NCBI GenBank assembly: GCA_963821225.1
Contig: CAWGCY010000007.1
Span: forward strand, 158,429-222,428
Length of the DNA: 64,000 bases
Source: Thermoanaerobaculia bacterium
GTDB taxonomy: Bacteria > Acidobacteriota > Thermoanaerobaculia > UBA5066
Reading direction: 5' to 3'
A model generated the notes under the pieces. It worked only from the letters and a program-made list of their open reading frames with translations. It ran no database searches and was not told the origin of the DNA. Below, piece after piece: positions 3-22,486 of the stretch (position 1 is its first letter; every line of letters starts with the position of its first letter). Made by a program: the position numbers and the translations under genes.

Positions 3-290
3 TTCCGCGCGTACTGGTTCGCACGCGGCTTCGATTCGCCGCTCCCCAGCTTCGAGCAGGAGGTCGCGATCGCCGCGGCCGGGGCCGACGACGTCTCCTG
101 GGCGCGGCACGTCGAGGAGTTCGCCGCGGTCCGGACGGCGACGACGACGTTCTTTCGCAACCTTCCGGACGCGGCCTGGTCGCGGAAGGGCATCGCGAGC
201 GAAAACCCGTTCACCGTGCGGGCGCTCGCGTGGATCGCGGCGGGCCACGCCGCGCACCACATCGGCCTCGTGAAAGAGCGATACCTGTAG
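3..290 (+). CDS. DinB-family protein, C-terminal fragment (5' end lies outside the window)
   Basis: The frame is open from the window edge to TAG at 288-290. The tail ...FTVRALAWIAAGHAAHHIGLVKERYL resembles the His-containing last helix of DinB/YfiT-like four-helix-bundle proteins. Confidence 0.5.
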   Translation, partial: FRAYWFARGFDSPLPSFEQEVAIAAAGADDVSWARHVEEFAAVRTATTTFFRNLPDAAWSRKGIASENPFTVRALAWIAAGHAAHHIGLVKERYL

Positions 291-301
291 GAGTCCGTCC
301 G

Positions 302-1365
302 ATGTCGACGAAGACGGTTCTCGCCGTGACGAGTCCGCGCGCCGCGGGGTTCCGGCAACCTGCCGAATGGGACCCGCACGAGGCCGTCTGGCTCGCGTGG
401 CCGAGCCATCACGACCTCTGGGGCGACGCGCTGGGCAAGGTGCGTTCGGACTTCACGGCGTTCGCGTCGGCCATCGCGGACGTGGACCCGATGACCGGCC
501 GGCCGCGCGGCGAGAGGCTAGAGGTGCTCGTGCCGGGGGCGGCGAACGAAGCCCTTGCGAAGGCCGCCCTCGGGGGTCTCGGCGCGCGCTTCCACCGGAT
601 TCCGTTCGGCGACATCTGGCTGCGCGACACGGCGCCGGTCTTCCTCACGGGCGACGGCGGCGCGCGGGCAAGCGCCTCGTTCGCGTTCAACGGCTGGGGC
701 GGAAAGTACGTACTGCCTCACGACGACGGCGTGTCGTCGCGCATCGCGGAGTCGGCGGGATTTCCCGCCTTCCGCTTCCCGTGGGTGCTCGAGGGCGGAT
801 CCGTGGAGGTGGACGGCGAGGGGACGTGCCTGACGACACGCCAGTGTCTCCTGCATCCGAATCGCAACCCCGGAATGACGCGGGAAGCGATCGAGGCGCG
901 CCTGAGGGACGCTCTCGGCGTCACGACCGTCCTCTGGCTGGGCGAGGGGCTGCGCAACGACCACACGGACGGCCACGTGGACACGCTCGCGCGGTTCGTC
1001 GCACCGGGCCGCGTCGTCTGCATGAGAGAGGACGGGAACGCCGACCCGAACCGCGGGGCGCTCCGTCAGGTGGCGCGTGACCTCGCGTCCTTCCGGGACG
1101 GCATGGGGCGGCGGCTCGACGTCGTCGAGATCCCCTCGCCGGGCCTCGTTCTCGACCCGCAGAGTGAGGTCATGCCCGCCAGCTACGTGAACTTCTACAT
1201 CGCGAACACGACGGTGACCGTACCCGCCTACGGCGCCCCGAACGACGAGGCGGCCCGCGCCTCGGTCGCGAGGCTCTTCCCCACGCGCCGCGTCCTCTCC
1301 ATCCCGGCCCGGGACCTCCTCGAGGGCGGCGGAGCGTTCCACTGCATCACGCAGCAGGTTCCGGC

Positions 1366-1369
<4 letters not shown>
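302..1369 (+). CDS. aguA: Agmatine deiminase (peptidyl-arginine deiminase superfamily)
   Basis: ATG at 302 (M25 of ORF 230..1369). Family-typical motifs: FRQPAEWDPHEAVWLAWP, WLRDTAP, GGSVEVDGEGT, DGHVD, and C-terminal GGGAFHCITQQ carrying the catalytic Cys. Confidence 0.85.
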
Positions 1370-2232
<863 letters not shown>

Positions 2233-4238: not shown

Positions 4239-7200
4239 ATGGGTTTCACCCGACGTACTTTCCTTAAGGCAGGAACCGTGGGCGGCGGTCTTGCCCTCGG
4301 CTTCGATCTCCACGAGGCGCGTGCGGAGATGCGCGAGTTCAAGATCTCGCGCACGACGGAAACGCGCAGCACGTGTCCGTATTGCGCGGTCTCCTGCGGC
4401 GTCATCATCCACACCCTCGGCGACAAGGCCAAGAACGCGACGGCCTCGGTCGTCCACATCGAGGGCGATCCCGACCATCCGATCAACCGCGGGACGCTCT
4501 GCCCGAAGGGGATCACCCTGAAGGAAGACATCACCCACAAGCAGCGGATCACGAGCCCGAAGGTGCGAAGGCCCGGCTCCGACAAGTGGGAGGACATCTC
4601 CTGGGACGACGCGATCGCGGGGATCGCGAAGCACGTCAAGGAGACCCGGGACCGGTGCTTCGTCGCGAAGAACGCGAAGGGGCAGACGGTCAACCGAAAC
4701 CCGGGCATCGTCATGATCGGCGGCTGCACGGACACGAACGAGTTCAACTTCCTGCAGTGGAAGGCCAGCGCGTCTTGGGGGGTTCTCTACCGGGATACCC
4801 AGGCACGGGTATGACACGGCCCGACGGTGGCCAGTTTGGCCGCCACGTTCGGGCGCGGGGCGATGACGAACGGCTGGGTCGACATCAAGAACGCCGACGT
4901 CATTCTCTGCATGGGCGGAAACCCCGCCGAGAACCATCCCTGCGGCTTCAAGTGGGCGATCGAGGCCCGTAGGACGCGTAACGCGAAGATCGTCGCGGTG
5001 GATCCGCGGTTTCACCGGACCGCGGCGGTCGCCGATCTCTACTCCCCCGTCCGCGCCGGCACGGACATCGCCTACCTCAGCGGCATCATCCGTTACGCGC
5101 TCGAGAAGAACCGCTTCCACGAGGACTACGTCAAGCTTCACACGAACGCGCCGTACGTCATCTCAGAGAAGTACTCCTTCAACGACGGGCTCTTCTCGGG
5201 CTTCGACGCCGCAAAGGGCGACTACGACAAGAGCGCCTGGGCCTACGAAGCCGACCCGAAGACGAAGACCTACGTCGTCGACGAGACGCTCCAGAACCCC
5301 CGCTGCGTTTTCCAGCTCCTGAAGAAGCACGTGGACCGCTACACGCCCGAGATGGTCGAGAGGATCTGCGGCTGCCCGAAGGAGACGTTCCTGAAGGTCG
5401 CCGAGATGGTCACCTCGACCGGCAACGCGGCGAAGGTCGGCACGATCATGTACGCCCTCGGCTGGACGCAGCATTCGATCGGCGTCCAGATCATCCGCAC
5501 GGCGGCCATGCTCCAGCTCCTCCTCGGAAACGTCGGGCGGCCCGGCGGCGGCGTGAACGCCCTGCGCGGCCACTCGAACATCCAGGGCGCGACCGACATG
5601 GGCGGGAACACGGAGATCCTGCCCGGCTACCTCAAGACGCCCGTCGCGACCATGACGAACCTGAAGGAATACCTGGAGCAGTCGACGCCCACGACCCTCA
5701 ACAAGCAGGCGTGGGCCTCGATGAACTACTGGCAGAACTACCCGAAGTTCATGGTCTCCCTCCTGAAGTCGCTCTGGGGCGCGAAGGCGACGAAGGAAAA
5801 CGACTTCGGGTACGAGTGGATGCCGAAGCTGGACGGCAACTACTCGTGGGCCTACGCCTTCGACGACATGTACCGCGGCAGCTCGATGCGCGCCGGCGGC
5901 AAGGAGCCGGGCCCCGAGGGCCTCATCACGTTCGGCATGAACCCGGTCGGGACCGGCCCGAACTCGCCGAAGATGGTCGCGGCGCTCGCGAAGCTGAAGT
6001 GGCTCGTCGTCGTGGAGAACGTCGAGACCGAGACCGCGCAGTTCTGGCGAGCCCCGAAGGACTACGGAACGCCGGAGGCGTCGAAGATCGCGACCGAGGT
6101 CTACCTCCTGCCCGCGGCTCTGTTCGCCGAGAAGGACGGGACGTTCACGAACTCCGCCCGCTGGATGCAGTGGAAGTGGAAGGCGATCGACCCGCCCGGC
6201 CAGGCCAGGGCGGACCAGGAGATCCTCGCGCGAGTCGTCCTCGAGGTGCAGAAGCTGTACCGGAAGGACGGAGGAGCCCTGCCCGACCCGGTCCTGAACG
6301 TCTCCTGGTCCTACACGAACCCGGTCAACCCCGACCTCGGCGAGGTCCTGAAGGAGATCAACGGCAAGGCCCTCGCCGACATCCCCGACCCGAAGGACAA
6401 GACGAAGGTCCTCAAGGCCGCGGGACAGCAAGTGGACGGCTTCGCCCAGCTCCAGGACGACGGCTCGACGATGTGCGGGAACTGGCTCCACTCGGGCGTC
6501 TGCACGGAAGCCGGAAACATGGCGCAGCGCCGGAACAACGCGGACCCGCTCGGTCTCGGCATGTTCCACCAGTGGGGGTTCTCGTGGCCCGCGAACCGCC
6601 GCATCATGTACAACCGCGCCTCCGCCGACAAGGACGGGAAGCCCTGGGATCCCGCCCGCTCCGGCATCAAGTGGAACGGCGAGAAGTGGATCGGCGACGT
6701 GCCCGACATGAAGCCCGACGCGCCTCCCGGCACGTTCGGCGCCTTCATCATGCTTCCCGAGGGCGTCGGCCGGCTCTATGCGCCCGTCCTCAACGACGGT
6801 CCGTTCCCCGAGCATTACGAGCCGATCGAGGCCCCGATCGACAACGTCCTCCATCCGAAGGTCACCTCGAACCCCGCGAGCAAGAAGTTCTCGTCGGACA
6901 AGGACCAGTACGCGAAAAAGGAGGAGTACCCGGTCGTCTGCACGACGTTCCGCCTCACGGAGCACTTCCACTACTGGACGCAGCACAACTCCCGACTTAA
7001 CGAGCTGCAGCCCGACCTCTTCTTCGAGGTCCCCGAGGACTTCGCGAAGGAGAAGGGGATCGCGAACAACTCGATGATCACGGTCTCGAATCCCCGCGGC
7101 AAGATCACCGCCAAGGCCGTCGTGACGAAACGGCTCCGGCCGCTCAAGGTGGACGGCAAGCCGATGTGGCAGATCGGCCTGCCGATCCACTGGGGCTTCG

Positions 7201-7316
7201 CGGGCAACCCGGGGCATACGGGACTGCTCGCGAACCTCCTGACGCCGTCGGCCATCGACCCGAACACGTGGACGCCCGAGTACAAGGCCTTCCTCGTGAA
7301 GGTCGAGAAGGCGTGA
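4239..7316 (+). CDS. fdnG: Formate dehydrogenase-N type catalytic alpha subunit, molybdopterin, selenocysteine-containing (TGA at 4812-4814 read as Sec)
   Basis: ORFs 4239..4814 and 4827..7316 are in one frame, joined by TGA. The context ...DTQARV-U-HGPTVASLAATFGRGAMTNGW matches the conserved Sec region of FdnG/FdoG. The twin-arginine signal is MGFTRRTFLKAG, the N-terminal FeS Cys cluster is CPYCAVSCG, and a GAGGAGG Shine-Dalgarno lies upstream. Confidence 0.9.
4819..4854 (+). promoter_or_regulatory. Putative SECIS stem-loop directing Sec insertion at TGA 4812
   Basis: The outer stem pairs GCCCGA (4819-4824) with TCGGGC (4849-4854). The inner stem pairs GGTGGCCA with TGGCCGCC (one G:U) around a small GTT-centred loop. 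The element starts 5 nt after the TGA. Confidence 0.5.
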
Positions 7317-8953: not shown

Positions 8954-9742
8954 TTGACCCTCTCCGAGCTATTCGAAAAGCGGGCTGCGCGCGCCGAGGC
9001 CCTTTCCGCTTCGGCTCCTGCCGTCCAGGAGCCGTTGCTCTTCGCGGCGAAGCTCTTCCGTCTGCAGGGGCGTCTCGCCGCGGCCATCTCGGCGCGGCAT
9101 GCCGACGCGCCGTTCTCGGGGGGGGTGGCCGACCTGCCGCGCCTCCTCGACCTCCTGCCCCCGCTGCTTTCGTTCGCGGCCGCCGACGGGCCGGCGGAGC
9201 TGGCGGAGGCCGCGGAAGCTCGTGCGAAAGACGACCCGGCGACCGCCGCCGCCCGGCTTCGCGTCTACTGGGAGGGCGGACGCGATGCCCTGGAGGACTA
9301 TCTGTCGCGGGCGTTTCTGCGTCCGTTCGCCGAGGCACTCGCGCGCGCCGGGATCGCGGCCGACCGGCCCCGGCACGAAGGGCACTGCCCGGCCTGCGGC
9401 TCGGCCCCGATCGTCTCCTTCCGAAAGGAGCTGCCCGAATCGAACGGCGCTGCGCGTTTTCTCGCCTGCGGACTTTGCGGGACGGAGTGGGCCTTCAACC
9501 GAATCCGCTGCCCGTCCTGCCAGGAGGAAAATCCCGCGAAGCTGCCGGGATTCCAGAGCGACGTCCACAAGAACGTCCGCATCGAGGCCTGCGAGACGTG
9601 CCGCCGCTACGTCAAGTCGATCGACCTCACGCTCGACGCGCGGCCGCTGCCCGAGGTGGACGACCTCGTCTCGCTCGCGATGGACCTATGGGCGATCGAG
9701 GAAGGCTGGACGCGTCTCGAGCCCGGCTGGGCCGGGATCTAA
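8954..9742 (+). CDS. fdhE: FdhE formate dehydrogenase maturation protein
   Basis: TTG start. Four CxxC pairs are present (CPACGS, CGLCGTEW, CPSCQ, CETCRRYVK), the FdhE rubredoxin-like arrangement. Confidence 0.85.
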   Translation: MTLSELFEKRAARAEALSASAPAVQEPLLFAAKLFRLQGRLAAAISARHADAPFSGGVADLPRLLDLLPPLLSFAAADGPAELAEAAEARAKDDPATAAARLRVYWEGGRDALEDYLSRAFLRPFAEALARAGIAADRPRHEGHCPACGSAPIVSFRKELPESNGAARFLACGLCGTEWAFNRIRCPSCQEENPAKLPGFQSDVHKNVRIEACETCRRYVKSIDLTLDARPLPEVDDLVSLAMDLWAIEEGWTRLEPGWAGI

Positions 9743-10017
9743 CCGAGCTGCATGAGCTCCGGCTCTGGCGCGGAATCCGAGCGCGCGAGCGCGTCCCAGG
9801 CGGCGCTCAGGTCCTCCGCGCCCCAACCGAGGAACAGGCCGTCGCCGCGGAAATGAATCGCACCGTCCGACGCCTCGAGGCGGACGATCGTGCCCGTGCC
9901 TTCCTCCGCCGTCACCGCGATGCGCCAGGCCGAGCGCGTCAGCGGCGCACCGCGCTCCCTTACGGGCAAGCGCTCGAGGAGGGCCGAGGGATTCGTGAGC
10001 GCCGGCCCGGCGGTCAT
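9739..10017 (-). CDS. Hypothetical 92-aa protein, last gene of the partner-switching operon
   Basis: The ATG at 10017 overlaps the pcm stop (ATGA). The translation MTAGPALTNPSALLERLPV... is non-repetitive. I recognise no family. Confidence 0.4.
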   Translation of the reverse strand: MTAGPALTNPSALLERLPVRERGAPLTRSAWRIAVTAEEGTGTIVRLEASDGAIHFRGDGLFLGWGAEDLSAAWDALARSDSAPEPELMQLG

Positions 10018-10781
10018 CGCGAGGTCCCCGGGTCGCGGGCCGGGGGCGGGGAGCCCTCGGCCTCGCCCACGAACGGCACGAAGCGCACGGGCAGAACGCT
10101 CTTCTCCGAGTAGCCCCCGCCCTGTCGCTTGATGACCTTCAGCTCCTGGTAGAACGCGCCGACCGGGATGATCATCCGCCCTTCCGGGGCGAGCTGTTCG
10201 AGGAGAGGGGGCGGGACCCGCTCCGGGGCGGCCGTGACGAGAATCGCGTCGAACGGGGCTTCCTCGGGCCACCCGCGGTAGCCGTCGGCGGCTCTCAGCT
10301 CGACGTTCTTCACGCCCAGCTTCTCGAGGTGCTCCCTCGCCTGGCGCGACAGCTCGGGGCGGATCTCGATCGAGAAGACTTTCGAGGCCAGGGCAGCGAG
10401 GATGGCCGTCGAATAGCCCGAGCCGGTCCCGATCTCGAGGACTTTCTCCTTCCCGGTCAGGCGAAGCTGCTCGGCCATGAAAGCCACGACGTAGGGCTGC
10501 GAGATCGTCTGGCCGCTTCCGATGGGAAGGGGCCGGTCGTCGTACGCGGACGCTTCCTCCGCGGGCGGGACGAAGAGGTGGCGGGGCACGGTGCGCATCG
10601 CTTCGAGGACGCGGGGATCCCGGATTCCGCGCGCCGCGATCTGGCGCTCGACCATGTCGCTCCGCTTCTTCTGCATGGGATCGGCCGGACCTTGGCAGCC
10701 TCCCGTGTACAGGACGCCCATTGCCGCGAGCGCCGCAGCCGCCGCCGCCCCCCGTGGATGGCGCTCCTGCACGCGCCTCAT
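10014..10781 (-). CDS. pcm: Protein-L-isoaspartate O-methyltransferase with N-terminal signal/lipoprotein-like peptide
   Basis: Motifs GQTISQPYVVA, VLEIGTGSGYSTAILA and FDAILVTAA. The ATG lies 1 nt after the upstream stop. The N-terminus is MRRVQERHPRGAAAAAALAAMGVLYTGGC. Confidence 0.85.
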   Translation of the reverse strand: MRRVQERHPRGAAAAAALAAMGVLYTGGCQGPADPMQKKRSDMVERQIAARGIRDPRVLEAMRTVPRHLFVPPAEEASAYDDRPLPIGSGQTISQPYVVAFMAEQLRLTGKEKVLEIGTGSGYSTAILAALASKVFSIEIRPELSRQAREHLEKLGVKNVELRAADGYRGWPEEAPFDAILVTAAPERVPPPLLEQLAPEGRMIIPVGAFYQELKVIKRQGGGYSEKSVLPVRFVPFVGEAEGSPPPARDPGTSR

Positions 10782-10782
10782 T

Positions 10783-12147
10783 CTATCGTGCGATCTCCTG
10801 CGGAGCCTCTTTCGTCTTTTGCAGATGGCGTTCCGACGGGTCTTCGAGCACGAGTTTCATCGCGCCAAAACGGATCTCCACGTCGAACGAGGAAAGAAAC
10901 GACGCGCCCAGGATGCCATCCTCGATCCCGCTCGATTCTTCTTTCACGACGATGTCCTTGAACCGGACCATGTAAGCCGAGACGCCCACCGTCACGTTCG
11001 AGATCTTGGACCACGACACGCGCGACTGTCCGATCCCCTCGAGCGTCACCGGGTATGTCGCCTCCGGCTCGAGGAGGCGCGTCTTTCGCAGCCCGCCGCG
11101 CGTGATCATGGACGGCTCCGACCCCGTGTCGAGGAGGAACAGCGACCACGGCTGCCCGTCGAGCGAGGCACGCACCATGGGCTTCATCCGCCGGAAAAAG
11201 AGGTTTTGGTCCTTCGACCCGCGCACGACGCGCCGATCGAGGCGATGTGCGTGGAGGAGGCGGTCGGCGAACTCGATTCTCCAGTCGAGCTCCTTCATGA
11301 GATGGACGCCGAGAACTCCGTTCAGGTGGAGAATTCCGAGCGAAGCCGTCTCGAACGTGAGCGTGCCGTCCGGCAGGACGCCGACCGGGACGTCCGTCAG
11401 CGTGAGATCGCCGACGCGCAGGGAATCGACCCAGCCGAGCCGCATCGGGACGTCCCCTTCGTGCAGACCCTTCGCCACGGCCGTCGCGCCCGGGACGAAC
11501 GTCACGCCGAGGCGGGCCGCCGTGCCTTCCGTCAGCAGGGACAGGGATGCGCCCGAGTCGAGGACCATGTCCTCCGCGGGTCGCCCGTTCACGCGCACGG
11601 GGACACGCAGGAGATTGGGCCGCCCGAACTCGACAGGCAGCGAGAGACGTTCTCCCGCCGCCGCGCCCCCGTAGAGCACGCGGGCGGCCTGCGACTCCAG
11701 GAAGACGAGCCAGCCGTCCGGCACGCGTTTGCCTTCGTGCCGCGCCACGCGCCCCCAGCGGCCCGCGGAAAGGAAGTCTCCGTCCCAGTAAGCGGCCTGC
11801 GACAGGAGCCACGCGAGGTCCGCGCGGTCGGACCCGCGGCCCGTGCCCGAAAGAGCGTGCTCGAGCCGCGCCGCGGCGCCGTGAAAGTCGCCGCGCTCGA
11901 GTAGGACCTGGCCGGTCAGCCGGTCGAGGCGGACCGCCCCGAGCTTTTGGCCGTCCGGTCCGGCGAGGAACTCCGAGACCTCCGGGATGTAGCCGCGTTG
12001 GAGCTGCTCTTCGGCGTTGAAGGAGTTCACGAGCCCCATCGGAGTCGGCCTTGCGAGCCGATGAGGCAGGATCGTGATGTCCCGCGAGAACGTGCAGGCA
12101 AGGGCGCCGAACACCGCCACGGCGAGGGCTCCTCGGCGGAGTCTCAC
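10783..12147 (-). CDS. Secreted protein with two retropepsin-like aspartic protease domains (pseudo-dimer)
   Basis: The GTG at 12147 overlaps the upstream stop (GTGA). The signal-like N-terminus is VRLRRGALAVAVFGALAC. Two catalytic-type motifs, MVLDSGASLSLL and LFLLDTGSEPSMI, are each followed by an ILG...FL flap/dimer-like segment. Confidence 0.7.
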   Translation of the reverse strand: MRLRRGALAVAVFGALACTFSRDITILPHRLARPTPMGLVNSFNAEEQLQRGYIPEVSEFLAGPDGQKLGAVRLDRLTGQVLLERGDFHGAAARLEHALSGTGRGSDRADLAWLLSQAAYWDGDFLSAGRWGRVARHEGKRVPDGWLVFLESQAARVLYGGAAAGERLSLPVEFGRPNLLRVPVRVNGRPAEDMVLDSGASLSLLTEGTAARLGVTFVPGATAVAKGLHEGDVPMRLGWVDSLRVGDLTLTDVPVGVLPDGTLTFETASLGILHLNGVLGVHLMKELDWRIEFADRLLHAHRLDRRVVRGSKDQNLFFRRMKPMVRASLDGQPWSLFLLDTGSEPSMITRGGLRKTRLLEPEATYPVTLEGIGQSRVSWSKISNVTVGVSAYMVRFKDIVVKEESSGIEDGILGASFLSSFDVEIRFGAMKLVLEDPSERHLQKTKEAPQEIAR

Positions 12148-13925
12148 GAAAGCGACTTGACCCGCGCGATGAGCACCGTCTGGTCGTCGTACTGCGCGAC
12201 GCCGGTCGTGAAGTCGCTCACCGCGCTGAAGATGCGCCGAGAAAGCTCGGCGGGGGGCTGCGCGCGCCCCTCGATCGCCAATGCGGTGAGACGCTCCATG
12301 CCGAACTCCTCGTCCACGCCGTTCAGCGCTTCGGTGATTCCGTCGGAGTACAGGAGAAGCGTATCGCCGGGTGCGACCCGGATCACGGCCTGCGTGTGCG
12401 TGACGCCCGCCATCATTCCGACGGGCACTCCGCCGCTCGGCAGCAGCGCGACGCCCTCCGGCGAGATCCAGAGCCCGGGGTTGTGGCCGGCATTCACGTA
12501 CGTGAGCGTACCGGCCGCGGGATCGTAGACGGCGATGAACAAGGTGGCGAACTTGCGGGTCGAGGAGAAGCCCACGAGATGGCGGTTCACGCGCGCCACG
12601 AGAGCGGGCAGGTCGGAGGCGTGGTTCGGCACGAGAAGATGGAGGCAGGCGTGGACCGTGGATACCAGGAGCGCCGCGGGCACGCCCTTGCCCGACACGT
12701 CGGCGACGCAGAGCGCCGTGCGCCCGTCCGCGAGCGGATAGACGTCGAAGTAATCCCCACCGACCTGCTTCGTCGGCCGGTTCCCTCCGGCCACGAGGAG
12801 GCCCGGCACGTCCGGAAGCGTCTCGGGAAGAATCGTCTTCTGGATGGAGGCGGCGAGCTCGATCTCCCGCTCCATCTTCTCCTTCTCCACCGCCTCGCGG
12901 TGCAGGCGCGCGTTCTCGAGCGCGATCGCGGCCTGGTTCGCGAAGAGCGACGCCACGCGCTCGTCGGATTCGGTGAAGTCGTCGATCGAGCCGGCGCGAT
13001 TCTCCTTGTCGGCCACGACGAGGACGCCGAGCCAGCGGCCCTCGGCGAGGATCGGCACGGCGAGGAGCTTCTCGGCCGGGGCGTTCACGAGGAGGCCCAC
13101 TCGCTCGGCGATCGTGTTGCAGCGGAGCACCGTTGCGGGCAGCAGTCGTGCCGCCACGCCGTCGAGAAGCGGCTCGCCGAGATGGCGCTCGGTGACCGGG
13201 CCGTCCGACCCGCGGTCGCACACGATGAGCGTTCCCGTGCGCGCATTGAGGAGAGAGATCGACTTGTAGAGGATGTCCTCGGCCAGCGACTCGAAATCGA
13301 GGGTGCCGGCGATGGAGAGTCCGACATCGTACAGGCTCTGCAGCTCCCAGACCCGGTACTTCAGCTCGAAGTCCGCCTTCTGCACCTTGTCGGCCATCCG
13401 CACCGAATCGAGGAGTCGCGCGGCGTGCGCCGTCACGGAGGCGAAGCCGACCGGATCGCCGGGGGGCTTCTCCAGGACCAGGAGCGCCAGCGCCTCTTCC
13501 TGAACCGTGAGCGGAATCGCGATCGGAGCCTCGCCGCCGGCGCCTTCGGACGGGCCGAAGAGGGCCCGGGAGACCGGCTCGGAGAGAGGGTCCGTGACCC
13601 GGCCTGAGCCCGCCGCGCGCACGGCGAGGGCCTCGAGAACCTCGAGAGGAGGCTCGAGCCCGGCGCATGCGGATCGGGCGGGCTGCGCGGGATCCACGAG
13701 GACGCCGCGTCCCGCCTGCGCCGCCGTCAGAAGGGCCGTGAGGATTCCGAACGAGAGCTGTTCGCGATCGGAAAACGGATCGAGCGCCGCGAGCGTCTCG
13801 TGCGCGGTCAGGATCGCCGCGCGCGCGTGCACCGCAGGCGCAGAAAGCCCGGGAATCGCCGCGCTACTCGGTCTCGCCCCGGAGCCAGGCGAGAGCGGGC
13901 TCGGGAGCGGGGAAGATGCGCGCAT
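12144..13925 (-). CDS. GAF-domain PP2C (SpoIIE/RsbU-type) serine phosphatase
   Basis: PP2C motifs GGDYFDVY, DVSGKGVPAALL, YSDGITEA and DDQTVLIARV follow a GAF-like region. The start is uncertain: ATG 13925 overlaps the STAS gene by 62 nt, and an internal GTG near 13832 is possible. Confidence 0.8.
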   Translation of the reverse strand: MRASSPLPSPLSPGSGARPSSAAIPGLSAPAVHARAAILTAHETLAALDPFSDREQLSFGILTALLTAAQAGRGVLVDPAQPARSACAGLEPPLEVLEALAVRAAGSGRVTDPLSEPVSRALFGPSEGAGGEAPIAIPLTVQEEALALLVLEKPPGDPVGFASVTAHAARLLDSVRMADKVQKADFELKYRVWELQSLYDVGLSIAGTLDFESLAEDILYKSISLLNARTGTLIVCDRGSDGPVTERHLGEPLLDGVAARLLPATVLRCNTIAERVGLLVNAPAEKLLAVPILAEGRWLGVLVVADKENRAGSIDDFTESDERVASLFANQAAIALENARLHREAVEKEKMEREIELAASIQKTILPETLPDVPGLLVAGGNRPTKQVGGDYFDVYPLADGRTALCVADVSGKGVPAALLVSTVHACLHLLVPNHASDLPALVARVNRHLVGFSSTRKFATLFIAVYDPAAGTLTYVNAGHNPGLWISPEGVALLPSGGVPVGMMAGVTHTQAVIRVAPGDTLLLYSDGITEALNGVDEEFGMERLTALAIEGRAQPPAELSRRIFSAVSDFTTGVAQYDDQTVLIARVKSLS

Positions 13926-14226
13926 ATTGGGCCAGCCCCATGATCTGGAAGGTCTTCTCGATCGTGGGCGTCAGCCGGCAGAAGGCCAGCCTCCCCCCTT
14001 GATCGAGCAGCTTCTCCAGAATCTCGATGAGAATGGAGATGCCGATCGAATTGACGATCTTCGTCTTCTCGAGGTCGAGGAGCAGGCGATTCACGCCCGA
14101 CCCCAGGAGAGCGTAAGCCTCCTTTGCGATCTCCTCGCCGCCGGTGTTGTTGATGTAACCGTCCGTACGGAGAACGGCGACATTGACGTCCGGCCGGTCC
14201 ACGACGACTTTCAGGGTCTCGCTCAT
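13864..14226 (-). CDS. STAS-domain anti-sigma-factor antagonist (RsbV/SpoIIAA-like)
   Basis: 120 aa. The conserved phospho-serine context is LDLEKTKIVNSIGISILIE. Confidence 0.8.
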   Translation of the reverse strand: MSETLKVVVDRPDVNVAVLRTDGYINNTGGEEIAKEAYALLGSGVNRLLLDLEKTKIVNSIGISILIEILEKLLDQGGRLAFCRLTPTIEKTFQIMGLAQYARIFPAPEPALAWLRGETE

Positions 14227-14241
14227 TCGGTCCTTTATATC

Positions 14242-14679
14242 TTATCGATACTTGCGCATGACGATGCGGGTGCCGTGCTCGCCGCTCTCGATCCGGACGT
14301 CGTCCATCAGGCTTTCGATGATCTTGATGCCCCAGCCCCGCTTGCGGCTGGACCTCAGCGCGGCTGCGATTTCGGGGACCTTGAGCCGGGTCGGATCGAA
14401 CCCATGGCCCGCATCCGTGACGTCGACCTCGAGGTAGGCGCCCCGGCCACCCTCCTCGGCGCCTACGCGGAACGCGAGCTCGACTTTTCGGTCTGGCGTC
14501 GCGCTGTGCTCGAACGCGTTGATGCAGGCTTCGACGACGGCCATCTTGACCTCGTCGATCTTGTCGCGGCCCATCTCCATCCACTCGCCGAGCGCCGAAA
14601 CCTGCGCCGTGGCGGCGATCTCCATTTCCGGCGCAACCGGAATGGTCATGTGCACCTCGCGACGCTCGACCGACGACAT
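14242..14679 (-). CDS. RsbW/SpoIIAB-like serine protein kinase (HATPase_c anti-sigma factor type)
   Basis: N-box EACINAFEH, G1 DAGHGFD, G2 RGWGIKIIESL. Confidence 0.8.
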   Translation of the reverse strand: MSSVERREVHMTIPVAPEMEIAATAQVSALGEWMEMGRDKIDEVKMAVVEACINAFEHSATPDRKVELAFRVGAEEGGRGAYLEVDVTDAGHGFDPTRLKVPEIAAALRSSRKRGWGIKIIESLMDDVRIESGEHGTRIVMRKYR

Positions 14680-14708
14680 CTCTTTTTTGGCAATCCCCTC
14701 TCAAAGCC

Positions 14709-14981
14709 CTAGAACGTCAGGAGCCCGCGAACCGCTGTGAAGAGGAACGCAGGAATCTTACCCGACGCGGCGGCGAGGGCGAACGCAGCGGCTTCCGCGA
14801 GAAGGAGTGACAGAGTGAGACGCGAGGCGCGGACCGATGCGGGGAGCGAATCGGAAACAAGTGCCGAAAAATGAGTTGCCGAGAACGAAGACGGCCCGGG
14901 GCGAGAGGAGTACCCGGACGCGGACGACGCGCGCACCGACACGCGGGCCGTGTCTGCCTCGATTCCGCCGTCGCTGAACAT
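14709..14981 (-). CDS. Hypothetical 90-aa Ser-rich protein with C-terminal hydrophobic segment
   Basis: ATG 14981 is preceded by GGAGG (8-nt spacing) and by the sigma-54-like promoter. Third-position GC is high in the C-terminal part. No family is recognised. The longer ORF form (to 15143) runs into the AT-rich region and is unlikely. Confidence 0.35.
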   Translation of the reverse strand: MFSDGGIEADTARVSVRASSASGYSSRPGPSSFSATHFSALVSDSLPASVRASRLTLSLLLAEAAAFALAAASGKIPAFLFTAVRGLLTF

Positions 14982-15010
14982 CTCCGGTGCCTCCGCTTGG
15001 TTCCCCGTAT

Positions 15011-15026
15011 CGCAAGTGCCGGGCCA
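15011..15026 (-). promoter_or_regulatory. Sigma-54 (-24/-12) promoter candidate for the partner-switching operon
   Basis: The minus strand reads TGGCCCGGCACTTGCG against the consensus TGGCACG-N4-TTGCW. GG-N10-GC spacing is exact, with 12 of 13 defined positions matching by my alignment. The predicted start is near 15000, about 19 nt upstream of ATG 14981. Confidence 0.5.
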
Positions 15027-15124
15027 TGCGCGGCGATCCAAGCTCCGAGGCTTCAGAACTGCATCTAACATCTTGGAAAGAGTAGGTTTCTTAGAACATC
15101 GTAGGATCCGGCCTCGAGACCCAT

Positions 15125-15147
15125 AGATGTGCCATAATATCACATCT
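15125..15147. promoter_or_regulatory. Perfect 7-bp inverted repeat AGATGTG-N9-CACATCT (candidate activator/operator site)
   Basis: Seen directly in the sequence. It lies about 125-147 bp upstream of the predicted sigma-54 start and immediately upstream of the -35 of the candidate aceB promoter. It sits in the AT-rich island, and a further TCACAT copy occurs at 15169-15174. Confidence 0.4.
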
Positions 15148-15154
15148 TGGCCAC

Positions 15155-15183
15155 TTGCGCAGCATAAGTCACATTGTTATCAT
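15155..15183 (+). promoter_or_regulatory. Sigma-70-like promoter candidate for malate synthase/isocitrate lyase
   Basis: TTGCGC, 17 nt, TATCAT, about 120 nt upstream of ATG 15302. Confidence 0.35.
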
Positions 15184-15301
15184 TCCAAATCAATAACTTA
15201 GTATTATCGAGCCATTAGATTACAGTGTGTCATTTAGTCGTAACGACGGGAGGTCGGCGTAAAGGTCCCAACAGCGCCGCGAAAGTGGCGCCGCCCACGA
15301 G

Positions 15302-17251
15302 ATGAACGTCGCGAAACAATCCACGCTCGTTCAGATGGCGTTAGACTCCGCCGCGATTTGGCGAAAGATGAATTCCAAGCTCGACTACCGCGACGGCGTC
15401 CTCCAAGCGTACCCCGAGGTCTACACCCCGGCAGCGCTCCAGGCGCTGGAGGCCTTGGCACCTCTCAACCGAGACCGGCGCGAGCTCATGGCGAAGCGCA
15501 TGGCCCTTCGGCTCGCGCGAGCCCGCGGCCGACAGCCCATCGCATTCCTCGACCCCGAGGCGCTGATCCCACGCACGAGCATCCGCGTCCAAGACGCCCG
15601 TGAGGGCAAGTTCGAGGGCAGCGAGATCCCCGCAGACTTGAAGCGCCAGTGGATCCAGGGCACGGGGCCCGCCACGAGGCCGCGGTCGAGCACCGAGAGC
15701 GGCCTGCGCAACGTCGCCTACGCTCTGCTCTCGGGCGCCGACGGCTGGATGTTCGACGGCGAGGACGCACTCGGGCAGGTCGACACCATGTCTCTCGACA
15801 ACCAGCGCAACCTTCGCCTGGCGATCGACAAGGACCCGCTCTTCCTGCGCGTCGCCGAAGCCGTCGCGGTCGAGATGAACCAGTGGGCGCAGGGCTTCTT
15901 CGGGCGGTCCATCATCGCCGACTGGCGCCGGCAGCTCGACTTCACCACCAAGATGTTTCGTCCCCGCGGCCTTCACCTCGACGACCGCCACGTGCGGGAG
16001 AGGGGCGGCGCCGGCTTCTCCGCCTCGATCGTCGACCTCGTGCTCTACGTGGTCAACAACCACAAGAGCCTGATCGGCGCGGGAGCGTCGATCGTTCTTT
16101 ACCTGCCGAAGATCGAGACCGCCGAGGAGGCGGCTCTCTGGAACGACCTCTTCGCTGCGCTCGAGCAGCACCTCGGGTTGCCGGCGGGCACGATCAAGGC
16201 GTACGTTCTCATCGAGCGGGTCGAGGCGACCTTCCAGCTCATGGAGATCCGCGCCGCCCTCGGCCGCCACTTCATCGGCTTCGACACCGGGCGCTGGGAC
16301 TACATCAACAGCGTCGCCGACGCGATGGCGTGGGACCCCGGCTTCCTCAACCCCAACATCGACGCCATCGGAATGACCTACGGCTACATGCGCACCTACG
16401 AGGACCGCGTGCGCCGCGCCGCGAACACACCCGACCAGAACGGCCGCTGCACGCTCTGGGAGGGCGGGATGGAGGCAAACATCCCGGTCGGGTCGGAAGC
16501 GGGCGTCGCCGCGGGCATGCGCAAGGCGAAGGCCGGCGGCGAGCGCGAGCAGCGCGCGGGAGCCAGCGGCAAGTGGGTGGCGCACTGGAAGATGGTGCAC
16601 ATCGTCCGGCCGGTGTGGGAGGAGGCCGGCCAGGACAACCAGCTCGGGCGCGCGTCTCCGCCTCTCACCTACACGCAAGAGGACGTCGACGGACTCGTGC
16701 TGCTCGAGCCGGCGCCGCGCACCGTCCGCGGCGCCCGCGACCTGCTGAGCGTGGCCCTTCAGTACGGCAACGCGTTCGGCCGGGGATTCCAGGCCGCGGC
16801 GCTCAAGCCGGCGGACTTCTTCGGCGACGCCAACGTCCTCTACCTGATGGAGGACATGGCGACCGGCGAGATCCGTCTCAGCATCCTCTGGGAGTGGCTG
16901 CAGAAGGGCGCGAAGCTCACCGCCGACGACCCGGCGACCGGTGCCCGCGCCGGAGACGCCTTCGGCGCGCCGCTCTTCAAGAAACTCCTCGCGGAGGAAT
17001 ACGAGAAGCTCCTTCGCGCCTCCGACCGCGACGTCCACGACGACTCGAAGCCGACGACTCTCCCGATCGCGCGGGAGATCGTCGAGACCTACGTCACCCA
17101 TCCCGTCAAGCCGCCCTGGTACATCGACTTTCTGAACCTCAACCTCGACAACCACGACCTCGCCACCGCCAAGGCCCGTATCAAGGCTTACCTCGAGGCC
17201 TTCGAGCGGGACGGGACGCGGATCACGGAGAACCTGGACTTCGTCGCATGA
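15302..17251 (+). CDS. aceB: Malate synthase (atypical 649-aa form)
   Basis: Malate-synthase-type motifs are [38 protein letters not shown] and GMEANIP. The length is intermediate between the A and G isoforms. Confidence 0.8.
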
Positions 17252-19533
17252 GCACGCAAACAGAAAGCCCCGTCATGACCTCGTTCGAGAGAGAAGTCGA
17301 CGCCACCCAGCGGTGGTTCGACAGCCCCCGCTTCGCGGGGATCACCCGCCTTTACACCGCGCGTCAGGTCGTCGAGCAGCGCGGCACGATCGCCCGCGAC
17401 TACACGGTCGCACGCGAAGCCGCCGTGGCGTTTTACGATCGCCTGCGCCAGCTCTTCGCGCAGAGAAAGTGCATCACCACGTTCGGCCCCTACTCGCCGG
17501 GGCAGGCCGTGACGATCAAGCGGATGGGGATCGAAGGGATTTACCTGGGCGGCTGGGCGGTCTCCGCCAGGGGAGGAACGAGCGAAGACCCCGGGCCCGA
17601 TCTCGCGAGCTACCCCCTCAACCAGGTACCCGACGAGGCCGCCACGTGGGTGCGCGCCCTCCTCACCGCCGACCGCAACCAGCAGTACCTGCGCTCGCGC
17701 ATGACCGAGGCGCAGCGCGCCGCGGCGCCGGCCTACGACTTTCGGCCGTTCATCATCGCCGACGCCGACACCGGCCACGGCGGCGACCCGCACGTTCGCA
17801 ACCTGATCCGCCGCTTCGTGGAGTCCGGCGTTCCGGGCTACCACATCGAGGACCAGCGCCCGGGCACCAAGAAGTGCGGCCACCAGGGCGGCAAGGTGCT
17901 GGTGGCGCAGGACGAGCAGAACAAGCGGCTGAACGCCGCGCGCTTCCAGCTCGACATCATGGGAGTCGCAGGCATCCTCGTCGCCCGCACCGACGCCGAG
18001 GCGGCCAGCCTGCTCGAAGGCCGTGCCGACGAGCGCGACCAGCCGTTCCTCCTCGGCGCGACCAACCTCGAAGTTCCGTCCTACAAGGCGTGCTACGTGG
18101 AGCTGATCCGGCACTTCTTCGAGCTGGGCGTCCGCGATCTCAACGGGCACCTGCTCTACGCCATCCCCGAGGGCGAGCACGCCTCCGCGTCCGCCTGGCT
18201 CGAGCGCAAGGGCCTTCTGCGCCAGGCCGCGGAGGCTGCGGCGGCCTACCGGGACGGGAGGGAGATCTCGCTCGACGCCACCTTCGACGGAGTCGCCTCC
18301 CGCTTGGTCGCGGCGTGGGAGGACGATGCCGGCCTCGAGACCTACGGCGAGGCGGTGGCCGAAGTGCTCGACTTCCGCGCCAGCGAGCGCGAACCGCTCG
18401 AGATGAGCCCCGACGAGTGGCGGCGGTTCGCCGCGGCGGCCTCGCTCTACGCCGCCCGTGAGAAGGCGCGCTCTCTCGGCGTCGACGTCGGCTGGGACTG
18501 CGAGCTGGCCAGGACTTCAGAGGGTTTCTACCAGGTCCGCGGGGGCATCCCCTACGCGGTCACGAAGTCGCTCGCCGCGGCGCCCTTCACCGACCTGCTG
18601 TGGATGGAGACGAAGACGGCCAACCTCTCCGACGCCCGCAAGTTCGCCGAGGCGATCCACGCCGTGTACCCGGACAAGATGCTCGCCTACAACCTCTCGC
18701 CGTCGTTCAGCTGGGACACCACCGGCATGAGCGACGAGGAAATGCGGCGCTTCCCCGAGGAGCTCGGCAAGCTGGGTTTCGTCTTCAACTTCATCACCTA
18801 TGGCGGCCACCAGATCGACGGTCTCGCCGCCGAGGAGCTGGCGACCGCCGTCAAGCAGGACGGCGCGCTGGCCCTCGCCCGCCTGCAGCGGAAGCTTCGC
18901 ATGGTCGAGTCGCCGTACCGCACGCCTCAGACCCTCGTCGGCGGGCCGCGCGCGGACGCAGCGCTGACCGCCACCTCGGGCCGCACCGCGACCACGATGG
19001 CGATGGGCAAGGGCTCGACCCAGCACCAGCATCTGGTCCAGACCGAGGTGCCGAAAAAGCTCCTCGAGGAATGGCTGGCGATGTGGACGCAGCACTACGG
19101 CCTCCCCGGCGGGCTCCGCGTCCGGCTCCTGCCTCACAGCGCCGGCTCGGAGCTGCTCGAGCTCGGCATCTACGGCGCCGGGGACGAGAAGCACGCCAAC
19201 GTCGTCTTCGCCCCCATCCACGACCGGCGCGGCCGCAGCATCCTCTCGGTGCGCGACCAGAACACTTACGCGGTGGCGCTCCGCAAGAAGCGTTTGATGG
19301 ACCTCGTGCACCTCTTCCTGATTCACCGCTTCCGGGTCGACTCCGTGCACTACGTCTCCCCCACCGAGGACAACCAGTATCAGGCCGCGAAGATGAAGGT
19401 CCACGGCGTCTTCGGCGAGGTCAACACGGAGGTCGGCCAGATCATCGTGGCCGACGTCAACCATCAGCGCATCGCCGAGCTCCTGGCGCCGGATCGCGTC
19501 GCGTTGTGGAGGCTGATCCGCAAGGAGCCGTAA
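17248..19533 (+). CDS. aceA: Isocitrate lyase, long form (761 aa, ICL2-like with C-terminal extension)
   Basis: The ATG overlaps the aceB stop (ATGA). The signature is [14 protein letters not shown] (K-[KR]-C-G-H-x). Also present: [20 protein letters not shown], and a roughly 250-aa C-terminal extra domain. Confidence 0.9.
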
Positions 19534-21037: not shown

Positions 21038-22486
21038 TCAGGGTGCGCCCGAAGCGCGGGCGGCCCGGGTTTCGGCGGCCGGCTTCGCCGCGCGGACACG
21101 CTCGAGAGCGCCGACGGCGGGAGCGAAGTGCGGGTTCCTCTTCAGAAGCGGCTCGAGCTCTTTCTCGGCCTCCTCGTTGCGCCCCAGCTGGTTCAGGCAG
21201 CCGGCCGCGAGGACGCGGCCGAAGTCCTTCGCCGGGTAGTACTCCGTTCCTCCGAGGCCGAACTCCCCTTCCGGCTGCTGCTGGATCCCCCGGAGGAGAG
21301 GGACCGCTTCCTCACACCGGCCGGACCGGGCCGCCGCGATGCCACGGACCATCGCGATGCCTCTCTCGACGTTCTTCTTCTCGTCGTCCGACCCCTTCTC
21401 GAAGGGCACGGTCGTGGACGCGAGCAGGGCGTCGAGGCCCGCCGTCTCACCCTTCAACGCGAGAAGCGCCGCCTTGCAAAAAGCGATGTGGGCGCTGAGC
21501 CGCTCGGCCTCCAATCCCTGCGGGAGGCCGACCGCGTCCGCGGCGAAGAGGTCCCTCTCCCTGCGCGCGGACTCCTCGTCGCCCGCGTCGAGGAGCGCGA
21601 TCGCAGCGTAGAAACGGAAGTCGAGGCGCTGATAGGGCTGGGTGGCATCACCTGCCGCCTTGAGAAAATACTGGGCGGCTTTCGCGGGATTTCCCCTTCC
21701 GATCTCCACGGTCCCGAGGTGACCGTAAGCGGGGAAGAAGTCGCCCTTGACGGCAAGCGCCTTCTTGAGCACGTCCTCGGCTTCGTCGTACCGTCCGACG
21801 AGCGCGTAGAGCTCGCCGAGCGAGTCGAGAGGGTTCGCCTGGTCCGGCGCGAGGAAGCGGTAGCGCTTGAGGTAGTCCTCGGCCTTCGCGAAGTCGCCGC
21901 GCGCCGCGCTCGCATAGCCGAGCACGTTGTAGGCATACGCGTAGTTCGGATTCACCGTGAGGAGCCGCTCGTATTCCGCGAGGGCCTCCGCGGTCCGCTT
22001 CTGGCTCGCCAGGAAGTAGCACCGCATCAGATAGCCCTCGGGATCGTCCGGGAACCGGCGCAGGTACTCGTCGTAGAGAGCGCCGAGGGTCGCGACATCG
22101 CGCTTCCCCCAGCGCTCCTCGTAGATCTTGAGCATGAGCTGCTCGCGCGGCGTGATCGCGTCTCTCGAGCGCGCCGCCGAAGCGAGGAGGGACTTCGCCC
22201 GCTCGGGGTCGCGCCCCCGGATCTTGTCGGCGAGCCGTAGCGTCGCCATGACGAAGTGAGGGTCGTACTGCAGCGCCTTGGCGTACCCCGAGATCGCCTC
22301 GCGCTCGTACAGCTTGATGTCGTTGTCGCGAGCCTCGTTGTAGGCCTTCCGGGCCTCTTCGGAGGACGTCGTGACGTCCCGACGGCTCCTGAGGAAGAAC
22401 GCCGCGGCGGTCCCGGCCGCCGCGAGACCCGTCACCACGAGGACGATGGTGAGCGGGCGCAGGGCGCGACGGGACGCGAACGGCAT
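21038..22486 (-). CDS. Membrane-anchored TPR repeat protein
   Basis: ATG 22486. The N-terminal TM segment is LRPLTIVLVVTGLAAAGTAAAFFL. Multiple TPR-like A/Y/L-patterned repeats follow (AISGYAKALQYDP, ALAEYERLLTVNPNYAYAYNVLG, AEDVLKKALAVKGDF). Confidence 0.75.
   Translation of the reverse strand: MPFASRRALRPLTIVLVVTGLAAAGTAAAFFLRSRRDVTTSSEEARKAYNEARDNDIKLYEREAISGYAKALQYDPHFVMATLRLADKIRGRDPERAKSLLASAARSRDAITPREQLMLKIYEERWGKRDVATLGALYDEYLRRFPDDPEGYLMRCYFLASQKRTAEALAEYERLLTVNPNYAYAYNVLGYASAARGDFAKAEDYLKRYRFLAPDQANPLDSLGELYALVGRYDEAEDVLKKALAVKGDFFPAYGHLGTVEIGRGNPAKAAQYFLKAAGDATQPYQRLDFRFYAAIALLDAGDEESARRERDLFAADAVGLPQGLEAERLSAHIAFCKAALLALKGETAGLDALLASTTVPFEKGSDDEKKNVERGIAMVRGIAAARSGRCEEAVPLLRGIQQQPEGEFGLGGTEYYPAKDFGRVLAAGCLNQLGRNEEAEKELEPLLKRNPHFAPAVGALERVRAAKPAAETRAARASGAP

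Follow-up and report, generated by a model that had tools for sequence, protein, structure and literature searches.

What does a partner switch control when no sigma factor is encoded beside it? In many environmental bacteria partner-switching modules far exceed sigma factors in number, and most of their targets are unidentified. The question is raised in concrete form by a 64 kb stretch of DNA, hereafter the window, from the 68% G+C genome of a Thermoanaerobaculia bacterium of the phylum Acidobacteriota (assembly GCA_963821225.1, contig CAWGCY010000007.1). Seven minus-strand open reading frames (ORFs; Table 1) are packed here in the order small ORF of 90 amino acids (aa), RsbW-like serine kinase, STAS protein, GAF-PP2C phosphatase, retropepsin-like protease, isoaspartyl methyltransferase (Pcm) and 92-aa ORF. 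The ORF list and Pfam searches confirm all seven ORFs and their domain assignments as given in a first-pass annotation of this DNA, and the junctions quoted there are exact when read from the sequence, namely GTGA at 12144-12147, ATGA at 10014-10017 and a gap of one nucleotide (nt) at 10782, which gives TAG-A-ATG from the protease stop to the pcm start. In addition, the start of the phosphatase gene runs 62 nt into the end of the STAS gene, as it does in most clades. Simple scans for terminators and sigma-70 promoters return chance-level results, with nothing standing out inside the operon, and no Rfam family is found in 9500-15400. The absence of a sigma-70-family gene in or next to the operon is upheld: no Sigma70 Pfam domain occurs in the ~30 ORFs scanned across the window, nor in three divergent relatives among the annotated genes that flank the operon. 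A co-encoded target sigma factor, a trait of classical partner switches, is missing here.

The surroundings of these genes offer another candidate target. The seven-gene operon does not stand by itself; it is the downstream half of a larger conserved cluster. In relatives, three genes precede it on the same strand, encoding a ~870-aa PDZ-SpoIIE protein, a ~470-aa TPR protein and a ~500-aa activator of GAF-Sigma54_activat-HTH_8 architecture, in other words an enhancer-binding protein of bacteria (bEBP). The comparison covers 44 species-level loci of the protease family, plus five more from exact-protein look-ups. The order PDZ-PP2C/TPR/bEBP/small ORF/kinase/STAS/PP2C/protease/Pcm is conserved in about 40 of the 44 loci and persists where protease identity has fallen to 50%. 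L043 and L047, which have distant paralogues of the protease, are without the switch module; the ORFs around them were listed, not annotated. In ~22 of 36 loci the activator stop lies 457-573 nt from the kinase start, and direct adjacency of activator and operon is likely to be the ancestral state. In the window, the activator is found 4.5 kb upstream of the promoter, with genes for malate synthase (15302-17251) and isocitrate lyase (17248-19533) intervening on the plus strand. These two genes are divergent from the operon and overlap by an ATGA at 17248-17251, and this glyoxylate-shunt insertion occurs only in the window and in three relatives (L008, L012 and L017). Several other close relatives have, between activator and promoter, a single opposite-strand gene of ~750-820 aa instead. 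In one subclade, a same-strand gene of 305-316 aa without Pfam match lies between the two (L001 4020-4970, with equivalents in L020, L023 and L024).

A sigma-54-type promoter had been proposed ahead of the operon. The element TGGCCCGGCACTTGC has both diagnostic doublets, GG at -24 and GC at -12, at canonical spacing. Taken by itself the match is unremarkable, since the window contains 32 matches to TGGCAC-N5-TTGC with at most two mismatches where 37.8 are expected, which is chance level. Comparison gives a different picture. Among the 41 loci with at least 450 nt of sequence 5' of the kinase, TGG-N8-TTGC is found just 5' of the small ORF in all 41, at 251-347 nt ahead of the kinase start, whereas the background rate of these loci is 0.016 matches per 450 nt. 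The distance from TTGC to the start of the small ORF is 23-31 nt in most loci, and a GGAG-type ribosome site precedes this start. Because the site keeps its position in relatives, although it does not stand out in the window, the promoter is judged real and the proposal is borne out.

Further elements emerge from a motif-anchored alignment of 11 promoter regions, in which conserved islands interrupt an otherwise variable spacer. One of them, TGTGATATTATGGCACA, resembles an upstream activating sequence (UAS) and is a candidate binding site for the activator of the cluster; related inverted repeats (TGTGGCAT...ATGCCACA) occur in a distant cassette (L171). Between this element and the -24 box lies an AT-rich block, TTCTAAGAAACCTACTCTTTCCAAGATGTTAG, reminiscent of an IHF site. 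Both assignments, enhancer and IHF, are putative, and that of IHF is made from its consensus. A third island, TTAGAATGGTTAATA in relatives and situated ~160 nt 5' of -24, could be a second enhancer half-site or the -10 region of a basal sigma-70 promoter. As predicted from these elements, the UAS-like site, the IHF-like block, the -24/-12 element and the short leader make up the standard layout of an enhancer-dependent promoter, and the neighbouring bEBP is its probable activator.

An indication that activator, promoter and switch belong together comes from outside the protease-bearing loci. Metagenomes were scanned for the DNA pattern encoding FGxE.GVATGV, a motif that includes the sigma-54 contact loop of this activator, and 120 loci were searched with clade-built profiles. 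Wherever the activator scores at least 450 bits and enough 3' sequence is available, kinase and STAS genes lie directly downstream, in every locus. The spacer between activator and kinase contains TGG-N8-TTGC in 19 of 20 such loci, mostly as TGGCAG-N5-TTGC. A distant subgroup (L115, L138, L148, L170 and L171, labelled Thermoanaerobaculia) shares with the window 50% identity in the activator, 42% in the kinase, 63% in STAS and 40% in PP2C. Its genes form a compact cassette, in the order small TPR protein, activator, promoter, small ORF of 55-61 aa, kinase, STAS and GAF-PP2C. The small ORF of the cassette (…LGGIP.WIKTA.ALFL.F*) is homologous to the 90-aa ORF and positioned like it. In L138, L170 and L171, the cassette stops after PP2C; the next gene is on the opposite strand or unrelated, and neither protease nor Pcm is present. 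For ~80 other, more distant GVATGV activators in metagenome contigs of 38-74% G+C, no switch is found nearby with clade-specific profiles, which may miss a divergent kinase or STAS. Collectively, gene content points to a conserved core of activator, promoter, small ORF and switch that travels together, to which protease, Pcm and PDZ sensor appear to have been added in one lineage.

The proteins of the core are recognizable members of known superfamilies, with deviations. In the 90-aa ORF, codon bias is weak, with a G+C content at third codon positions (GC3) of 0.74 compared with 0.85-0.89 in neighbouring genes. Its N-terminus is variable, but its C-terminal ~35 residues (LLLAEAAAFAxxAASGKIPxxxxxxxRALLTF*), which form a hydrophobic hairpin (…SGKIP…RALLTF*), are conserved in 40 of 41 relatives; for this reason the ORF is considered real despite its codon usage. 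The kinase has RsbW as best match in the PDB (6m36, E 4e-12), with SpoIIAB also among its best solved relatives, and its N, G1 and G2 boxes (EACINAFEH, DAGHGF and GWGIKII) align with those of RsbW. A search for homologues returned only orthologues with at least 76% identity. In STAS, Ser60 (VNSIG) aligns with the phospho-acceptor Ser (DSSG) of SpoIIAA and is predicted to be phosphorylatable. STAS is also the most conserved protein of the cluster, with 83-98% identity across relatives. Scores against NCBIfam equivalogs stay far below the cut-offs (59.5 vs 145 bits for RsbW, 52 vs 135 for SpoIIAB and 31 vs 115 for SpoIIAA); by these scores kinase and STAS are superfamily members and not orthologues of RsbW and RsbV. 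The operon PP2C has the metal-binding motifs GGDYFD, DVSGKG, YSDGITE and YDDQT, and the Asp motifs are kept in both PP2Cs of the cluster. Its GAF region is homologous to that of the activator (~30% identity).

The three upstream proteins resemble a known signalling trio. In the activator, a GAF domain takes the place of a receiver domain, and the best NCBIfam matches are NifA and PrsR. The TPR protein, probably periplasmic, matches PrsT (E 2.5e-17), and residues 299-622 of the sensor phosphatase match the sensor region of PrsK (E 9e-14). All three score below the curated Prs cut-offs (51 vs 300 bits for PrsK, 346 vs 503 for PrsR and 62 vs 312 for PrsT). Hydropathy suggests that the first transmembrane (TM) segment of the sensor has its N-terminus inside, that the PDZ domain lies outside the membrane and that ~nine further TM segments lead to cytoplasmic GAF and PP2C domains. 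These resemblances suggest a design of the PrsK/PrsR/PrsT type in which His-Asp transfer has been swapped for a Ser-phosphate switch. The GVATGV loop is found in 37 of 37 activator orthologues, and the other activators of the same loci are canonical. The same variant occurs in DVUA0100 of Desulfovibrio vulgaris, which a regulon prediction, not a demonstration, connects to sigma-54 promoters (PMC4641369).

It is tempting to combine these elements into one circuit, leading from an envelope signal through PP2C, STAS, kinase and activator to the operon. As a whole this model is tentative, slightly more open to doubt than to belief. The membrane PDZ-GAF-PP2C would sense a periplasmic signal by its PrsK-like sensor region, joined to a phosphatase where PrsK has its kinase, and, once triggered, would dephosphorylate STAS at Ser60. 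STAS devoid of phosphate would capture the RsbW-like kinase, and the other proposed partner of this kinase, the neighbouring GAF activator, would be set free. The released activator would open the sigma-54 promoter and more switch components would be made, a feedback comparable to that in the sigB operon. In the lineage with cargo, the exported aspartic protease and the isoaspartyl methyltransferase would be made as well, for the processing or repair of proteins in the envelope. A second input or a reset may come from the cytoplasmic GAF-PP2C. A route from sensor to activator by way of STAS and kinase, which would be the only one that the cluster encodes, is proposed because the sensor gene beside that of the activator specifies a PP2C and the activator has no receiver domain; known bacterial substrates of the PP2C family are mainly phospho-STAS proteins (PMC11418112). 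It belongs to the same tentative model that the seven ORFs would form one sigma-54-dependent operon, the output half of an envelope-signalling cluster, and that this cluster would be a conserved envelope-signalling unit of Thermoanaerobaculia and related Acidobacteriota.

The central step of the model deserves separate consideration. Here the kinase would hold the activator inactive and would act as an anti-activator, not as an anti-sigma factor, a role that is possible but rather doubtful. The same guarded view is taken of its corollary, by which a Ser-phosphate switch may gate a GAF-type GVATGV bEBP and replace the His-Asp link of PrsK/PrsR-type systems. Two systems provide the working analogy. 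NifL, a GHKL-domain protein, inhibits the GAF-type bEBP NifA. PspA leaves PspF for the small membrane proteins PspB and PspC under envelope stress, and the psp operon is autoregulated and begins with genes for small or membrane proteins. The switch proteins described here have no sequence relationship to NifL or PspA.

Several considerations weigh against the model. The sigma-54 contact loop of the activator is GVATGV and not GAFTGA, as aligned with ZraR; PspF needs the Phe of GAFTGA for its contact with sigma-54, and GVATGV is without this Phe. No RpoN box is found in the window. Binding of the kinase to the activator is proposed by analogy to NifL-NifA and PspA-PspF, the single transcript and the use of the promoter are read from sequence, and the topology of the PDZ domain is read from hydropathy alone. 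Pcm requires S-adenosylmethionine, for which no periplasmic supply is known. Finally, a closed loop of activator and switch would leave the compact cassette without any output, so that there must be further promoters or targets.

If the kinase does not act on the activator, it may act on a sigma factor encoded elsewhere. It would then be a true anti-sigma for an unlinked sigma-70-family factor, and the sigma-54 promoter with its activator would only set the amount of switch proteins. Such a role would suit a kinase whose best solved relatives, RsbW and SpoIIAB, are anti-sigma factors, and it has a parallel in the chlamydial switch, which includes a transmembrane RsbU and acts on an unlinked sigma (PMC4552016, PMC11619594). 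It is made unlikely by the lack of any sigma-70-family gene near the module, in the window as in three annotated divergent relatives, by kinase scores far under the RsbW/SpoIIAB equivalog cut-offs (59 vs 145 bits) and by the fact that two divergent types of cassette link the module to a bEBP. Alternatively, the output may reside in STAS. Unphosphorylated STAS would act on a target other than a sigma factor, which may be the small membrane protein or some process of secretion or of the envelope, and the kinase would only inactivate STAS. Several sigma-less systems (SypA, RbaV and HmpV) work in this way (PMC8256260), and the syp locus of Vibrio fischeri, in which SypA is encoded first, is also sigma-54-dependent (PMC4517449). 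High conservation is expected of a protein with several partners, as STAS would be, but binding of one kinase and two phosphatases explains it equally, and no candidate target is found besides the co-encoded proteins. This explanation carries a low probability and is compatible with the envelope-signalling model, not exclusive of it.

The triad of kinase, STAS and PP2C also recalls RsbT-RsbS-RsbU/RsbX modules. A kinase of RsbT type, freed from STAS, would bind and activate one of the GAF-PP2C phosphatases as part of an upstream cascade with its final substrate elsewhere, and the homologous GAF region of the two PP2Cs could be the docking site. The cluster has a single STAS and no RsbR-like co-antagonist, hence no stressosome, and encodes no second STAS substrate, all of which makes a cascade of this type quite improbable. 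The most sceptical explanation puts the -24/-12 match and the close packing of the genes down to coincidence, with unrelated neighbours transcribed from ordinary promoters. It draws on the chance-level motif count in the window and on the simple scan for other signals, which shows no strong alternatives either way. Coincidence would scarcely keep the motif in position in 41 of 41 and 19 of 20 loci within otherwise variable spacers, nor the gene order down to 50% protease identity, nor the overlapping start and stop codons, and this explanation is given hardly any weight.

The protease and Pcm are what one lineage has added to the core of the cluster. Both are predicted to be lipoproteins, from a sequence pattern and its conservation judged by eye and by regular expression. 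In the family alignment of the protease, Cys18 is invariant in a lipobox-like context (A-A-C-T-F-S), and so are the two catalytic motifs D197-S-G (DSGAS) and D340-T-G (DTGSE). The AlphaFold2 model of the protease has a mean confidence (pLDDT) of 64, and only its TPR region and first retropepsin domain are modelled with confidence; the second domain stays below 50, which leaves a pseudo-dimer arrangement hypothetical. In Foldseek searches, domain 1 matches a putative endopeptidase of Bacteroides (9iy9, E 6e-11), APRc of Rickettsia (E 2e-7) and Ddi1. The protein scores below the cut-off of TIGR02281.

Pcm is a canonical enzyme with an unusual N-terminus. It passes the PIMT equivalog cut-offs (249 vs 188 bits for NF001453 and 216 vs 159 for TIGR00080), and the S-adenosylmethionine-binding motif VLEIGTGSGY is present. 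In the window it has an N-terminal extension of 35 residues with a lipobox Cys at position 29. In most of 41 relatives, with few exceptions, an R/K-rich n-region that begins right after the protease stop is followed by a hydrophobic stretch and a lipobox Cys. Conservation 5' of the catalytic core in nearly all relatives means that the extension is no artefact. Annotated Pcm proteins that start at an internal Met (219-240 aa) omit it. A Tat signal was considered and rejected, the twin arginine not being conserved. In a crude scan giving rough counts, ~31 of the 150 nearest Pcm cluster representatives at 50% identity have a lipobox-like N-terminus and ~51 another hydrophobic N-terminus; exported Pcm-like proteins thus appear to be common among the nearest sequence clusters. 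One of these representatives (P0241) is a tandem Pcm of 482 aa. A literature search on exported Pcm found nothing direct. The last ORF of the operon, of 92 aa, has homologues in 26 loci of one subclade only (44-84% identity), is sometimes parted from pcm by a PAP2 gene and is probably not a core part.

The protease/Pcm pair had been put forward as the possible output of the switch. As predicted lipoproteins, the two cannot be direct partners of a cytoplasmic switch, and because a related cassette occurs without them they are cargo and not a conserved output. Gene content leaves them, by prediction, as lineage-specific transcriptional cargo.

Table 1. Features of the switch operon, its promoter region and the upstream genes in the window
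Feature	Position	Strand	Basis
Conserved upstream element TTTGGAATGATAACA (TTAGAATGGTTAATA in relatives)	15175-15189	-	Conservation island in the 11-region alignment
Candidate enhancer-like (UAS) element TGTGATATTATGGCACA	15128-15144	-	Conserved as TGTGACAT-N3-GGCGCA, ~100-115 nt 5' of -24
AT-rich conserved block TTCTAAGAAACCTACTCTTTCCAAGATGTTAG	15065-15096	-	Between UAS and -24; resembles IHF site WATCAA-N4-TTR
Sigma-54-type -24/-12 element TGGCCCGGCACTTGC	15012-15026	-	One mismatch to TGGCAC-N5-TTGC
Small ORF, 90 aa	14709-14981	-	Conserved C-terminus; without Pfam or NCBIfam match
RsbW/SpoIIAB-like GHKL serine kinase, 145 aa	14242-14679	-	Pfam HATPase_c_2, E 1.6e-21
STAS-only protein, 120 aa	13864-14226	-	Pfam STAS; SpoIIAA alignment
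GAF-PP2C (SpoIIE-family) phosphatase, cytoplasmic	12144-13925	-	Pfam SpoIIE, E 1e-46, and GAF
Predicted lipoprotein with TPR region and two retropepsin-like domains	10783-12147	-	Pfam Asp_protease_2, two copies; AlphaFold2 and Foldseek
Pcm with predicted N-terminal lipoprotein signal	10014-10781	-	Pfam PCMT, E 5e-62
92-aa ORF	9739-10017	-	GC3 0.88; homologues in one subclade
GAF-AAA+-HTH sigma-54 activator (bEBP) with GVATGV loop	19537-21030	-	Pfam Sigma54_activat, E 2e-64
TPR protein with N-terminal membrane anchor or signal	21080-22462	-	Pfam TPR; hydropathy; weak PrsT match; conserved position
Membrane sensor phosphatase, TM1-PDZ-~nine TM-GAF-PP2C	22549-25158	-	Pfam PDZ, GAF and SpoIIE; hydropathy; conserved position

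On its 3' side, the operon converges with a formate dehydrogenase operon that ends in fdhE, and the fdhE stop (9740-9742) overlaps the opposite-strand stop of the 92-aa ORF (9739-9741). The gene for the formate dehydrogenase alpha subunit (4239-7316, plus strand) is followed by fdhB, fdhC and fdhE. It contains a single in-frame TGA at 4812-4814 (context ...ARV*HGPTV...), the usual position of selenocysteine, and probably encodes a selenoprotein. Farther neighbours in the window include glycosyltransferases, ABC transporters and DnaJ; between 26 and 60 kb there are many glycosyltransferases and an ABC-2 transporter. Genes for PAD_porph (agmatine deiminase-like) and CN_hydrolase proteins form a pair close to the cluster, in the window (230-2232, plus strand) as in a distant relative (L004, 14135-16083), which suggests a wider synteny around the cluster.

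How far does this cluster differ from described systems? Among the closest parallels is the syp locus of V. fischeri, likewise a sigma-54/bEBP-dependent locus with its own sigma-less switch of STAS, serine kinase and PP2C and with products acting at the envelope (PMC4517449, PMC8256260). There, the STAS gene sypA is found at the 5' end, SypG is the activator and SypE the kinase/phosphatase. SypG, a response regulator with a receiver domain, takes its input from histidine kinases, whereas the activator here is of the GAF type and has a GVATGV loop; kinase, receiver and PP2C are one protein in SypE, whereas kinase and PP2C are separate here and a second PP2C, the membrane PDZ-PP2C, is present; and the cargo of syp is polysaccharide synthesis instead of protease and Pcm. 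The Bacillus systems RsbU/RsbV/RsbW-SigB and SpoIIE/SpoIIAA/SpoIIAB-SigF share with the cluster a GHKL kinase, a STAS protein with aligned phospho-Ser and PP2Cs. One of the PP2Cs is membrane-embedded, like SpoIIE, and the operon encodes its own regulators as in Bacillus, suggesting autoregulation. Unlike in Bacillus, there is no sigma gene, the promoter is of the sigma-54 type and neither kinase nor STAS reaches its NCBIfam equivalog cut-off. In the Rsb system of Chlamydia (transmembrane RsbU, RsbV1/V2 and RsbW), too, the sensor PP2C has a periplasmic domain and a sigma gene is missing beside the switch. Its target, however, is the unlinked housekeeping sigma-66, and it has neither a bEBP link nor co-transcribed exported enzymes (PMC4552016, PMC11619594).

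Other parallels concern the upstream trio and the cargo. The PrsK/PrsR/PrsT system of PEP-CTERM/exosortase loci combines a transmembrane sensor, a TPR protein with export signal, a sigma-54 activator and enhancer and -24/-12 sites (PMC1569441), as does the present cluster; here, by contrast, a PP2C replaces the histidine kinase as output of the sensor, the receiver of the activator gives way to a GAF domain, and all scores are below the cut-offs. In the surE-pcm-nlpD-rpoS region of E. coli and Yersinia, pcm also stands beside a lipoprotein of a peptidase superfamily and in the context of stress-response regulation (PMC2736372), but E. coli Pcm is cytoplasmic, NlpD is of the LytM type and not retropepsin-like, and the regulator is a sigma gene. 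The protease shares the retropepsin fold, seen in its domain 1, and by prediction an exported or membrane-associated location with Rickettsia APRc and B. fragilis 9iy9, and differs from them by two domains per chain, each with a D[ST]G motif, placed after a TPR region and a putative lipobox.

Coupling of a phospho-switch to two exported enzymes had been called undescribed. This holds to the extent that, in the literature searched, neither this cluster nor any partner switch with an enhancer-binding protein as its target is described. It does not hold for the principle, since a sigma-less partner switch driven by sigma-54 is already known from syp and exported Pcm-like proteins appear to be common. 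What is new is the conserved linkage that joins a partner switch with an activator of the GAF type, bearing a GVATGV loop, and with the promoter of this activator, together with a PrsK-like sensor with phosphatase output, a conserved small ORF and a cargo of protease and Pcm, both with predicted export.

Linkage to one activator class and one promoter, in two divergent cassette types, provides a concrete candidate for the target of such a switch. If the anti-activator role is true, this would be the first partner switch with sigma-54-dependent transcription as output, and the same circuit would deliver an exported pair for isoaspartate repair and proteolysis to the envelope. The locus also documents a conserved subfamily of non-GAFTGA (GVATGV) activators beside well-formed sigma-54 promoters and, encoded first in the operon, a small hydrophobic protein that is conserved. 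A Pcm predicted to be a lipoprotein poses the question of an S-adenosylmethionine-dependent repair enzyme outside the cytoplasm. In Thermoanaerobaculia, an abundant and poorly cultured group, any defined stress circuit would be new biology.

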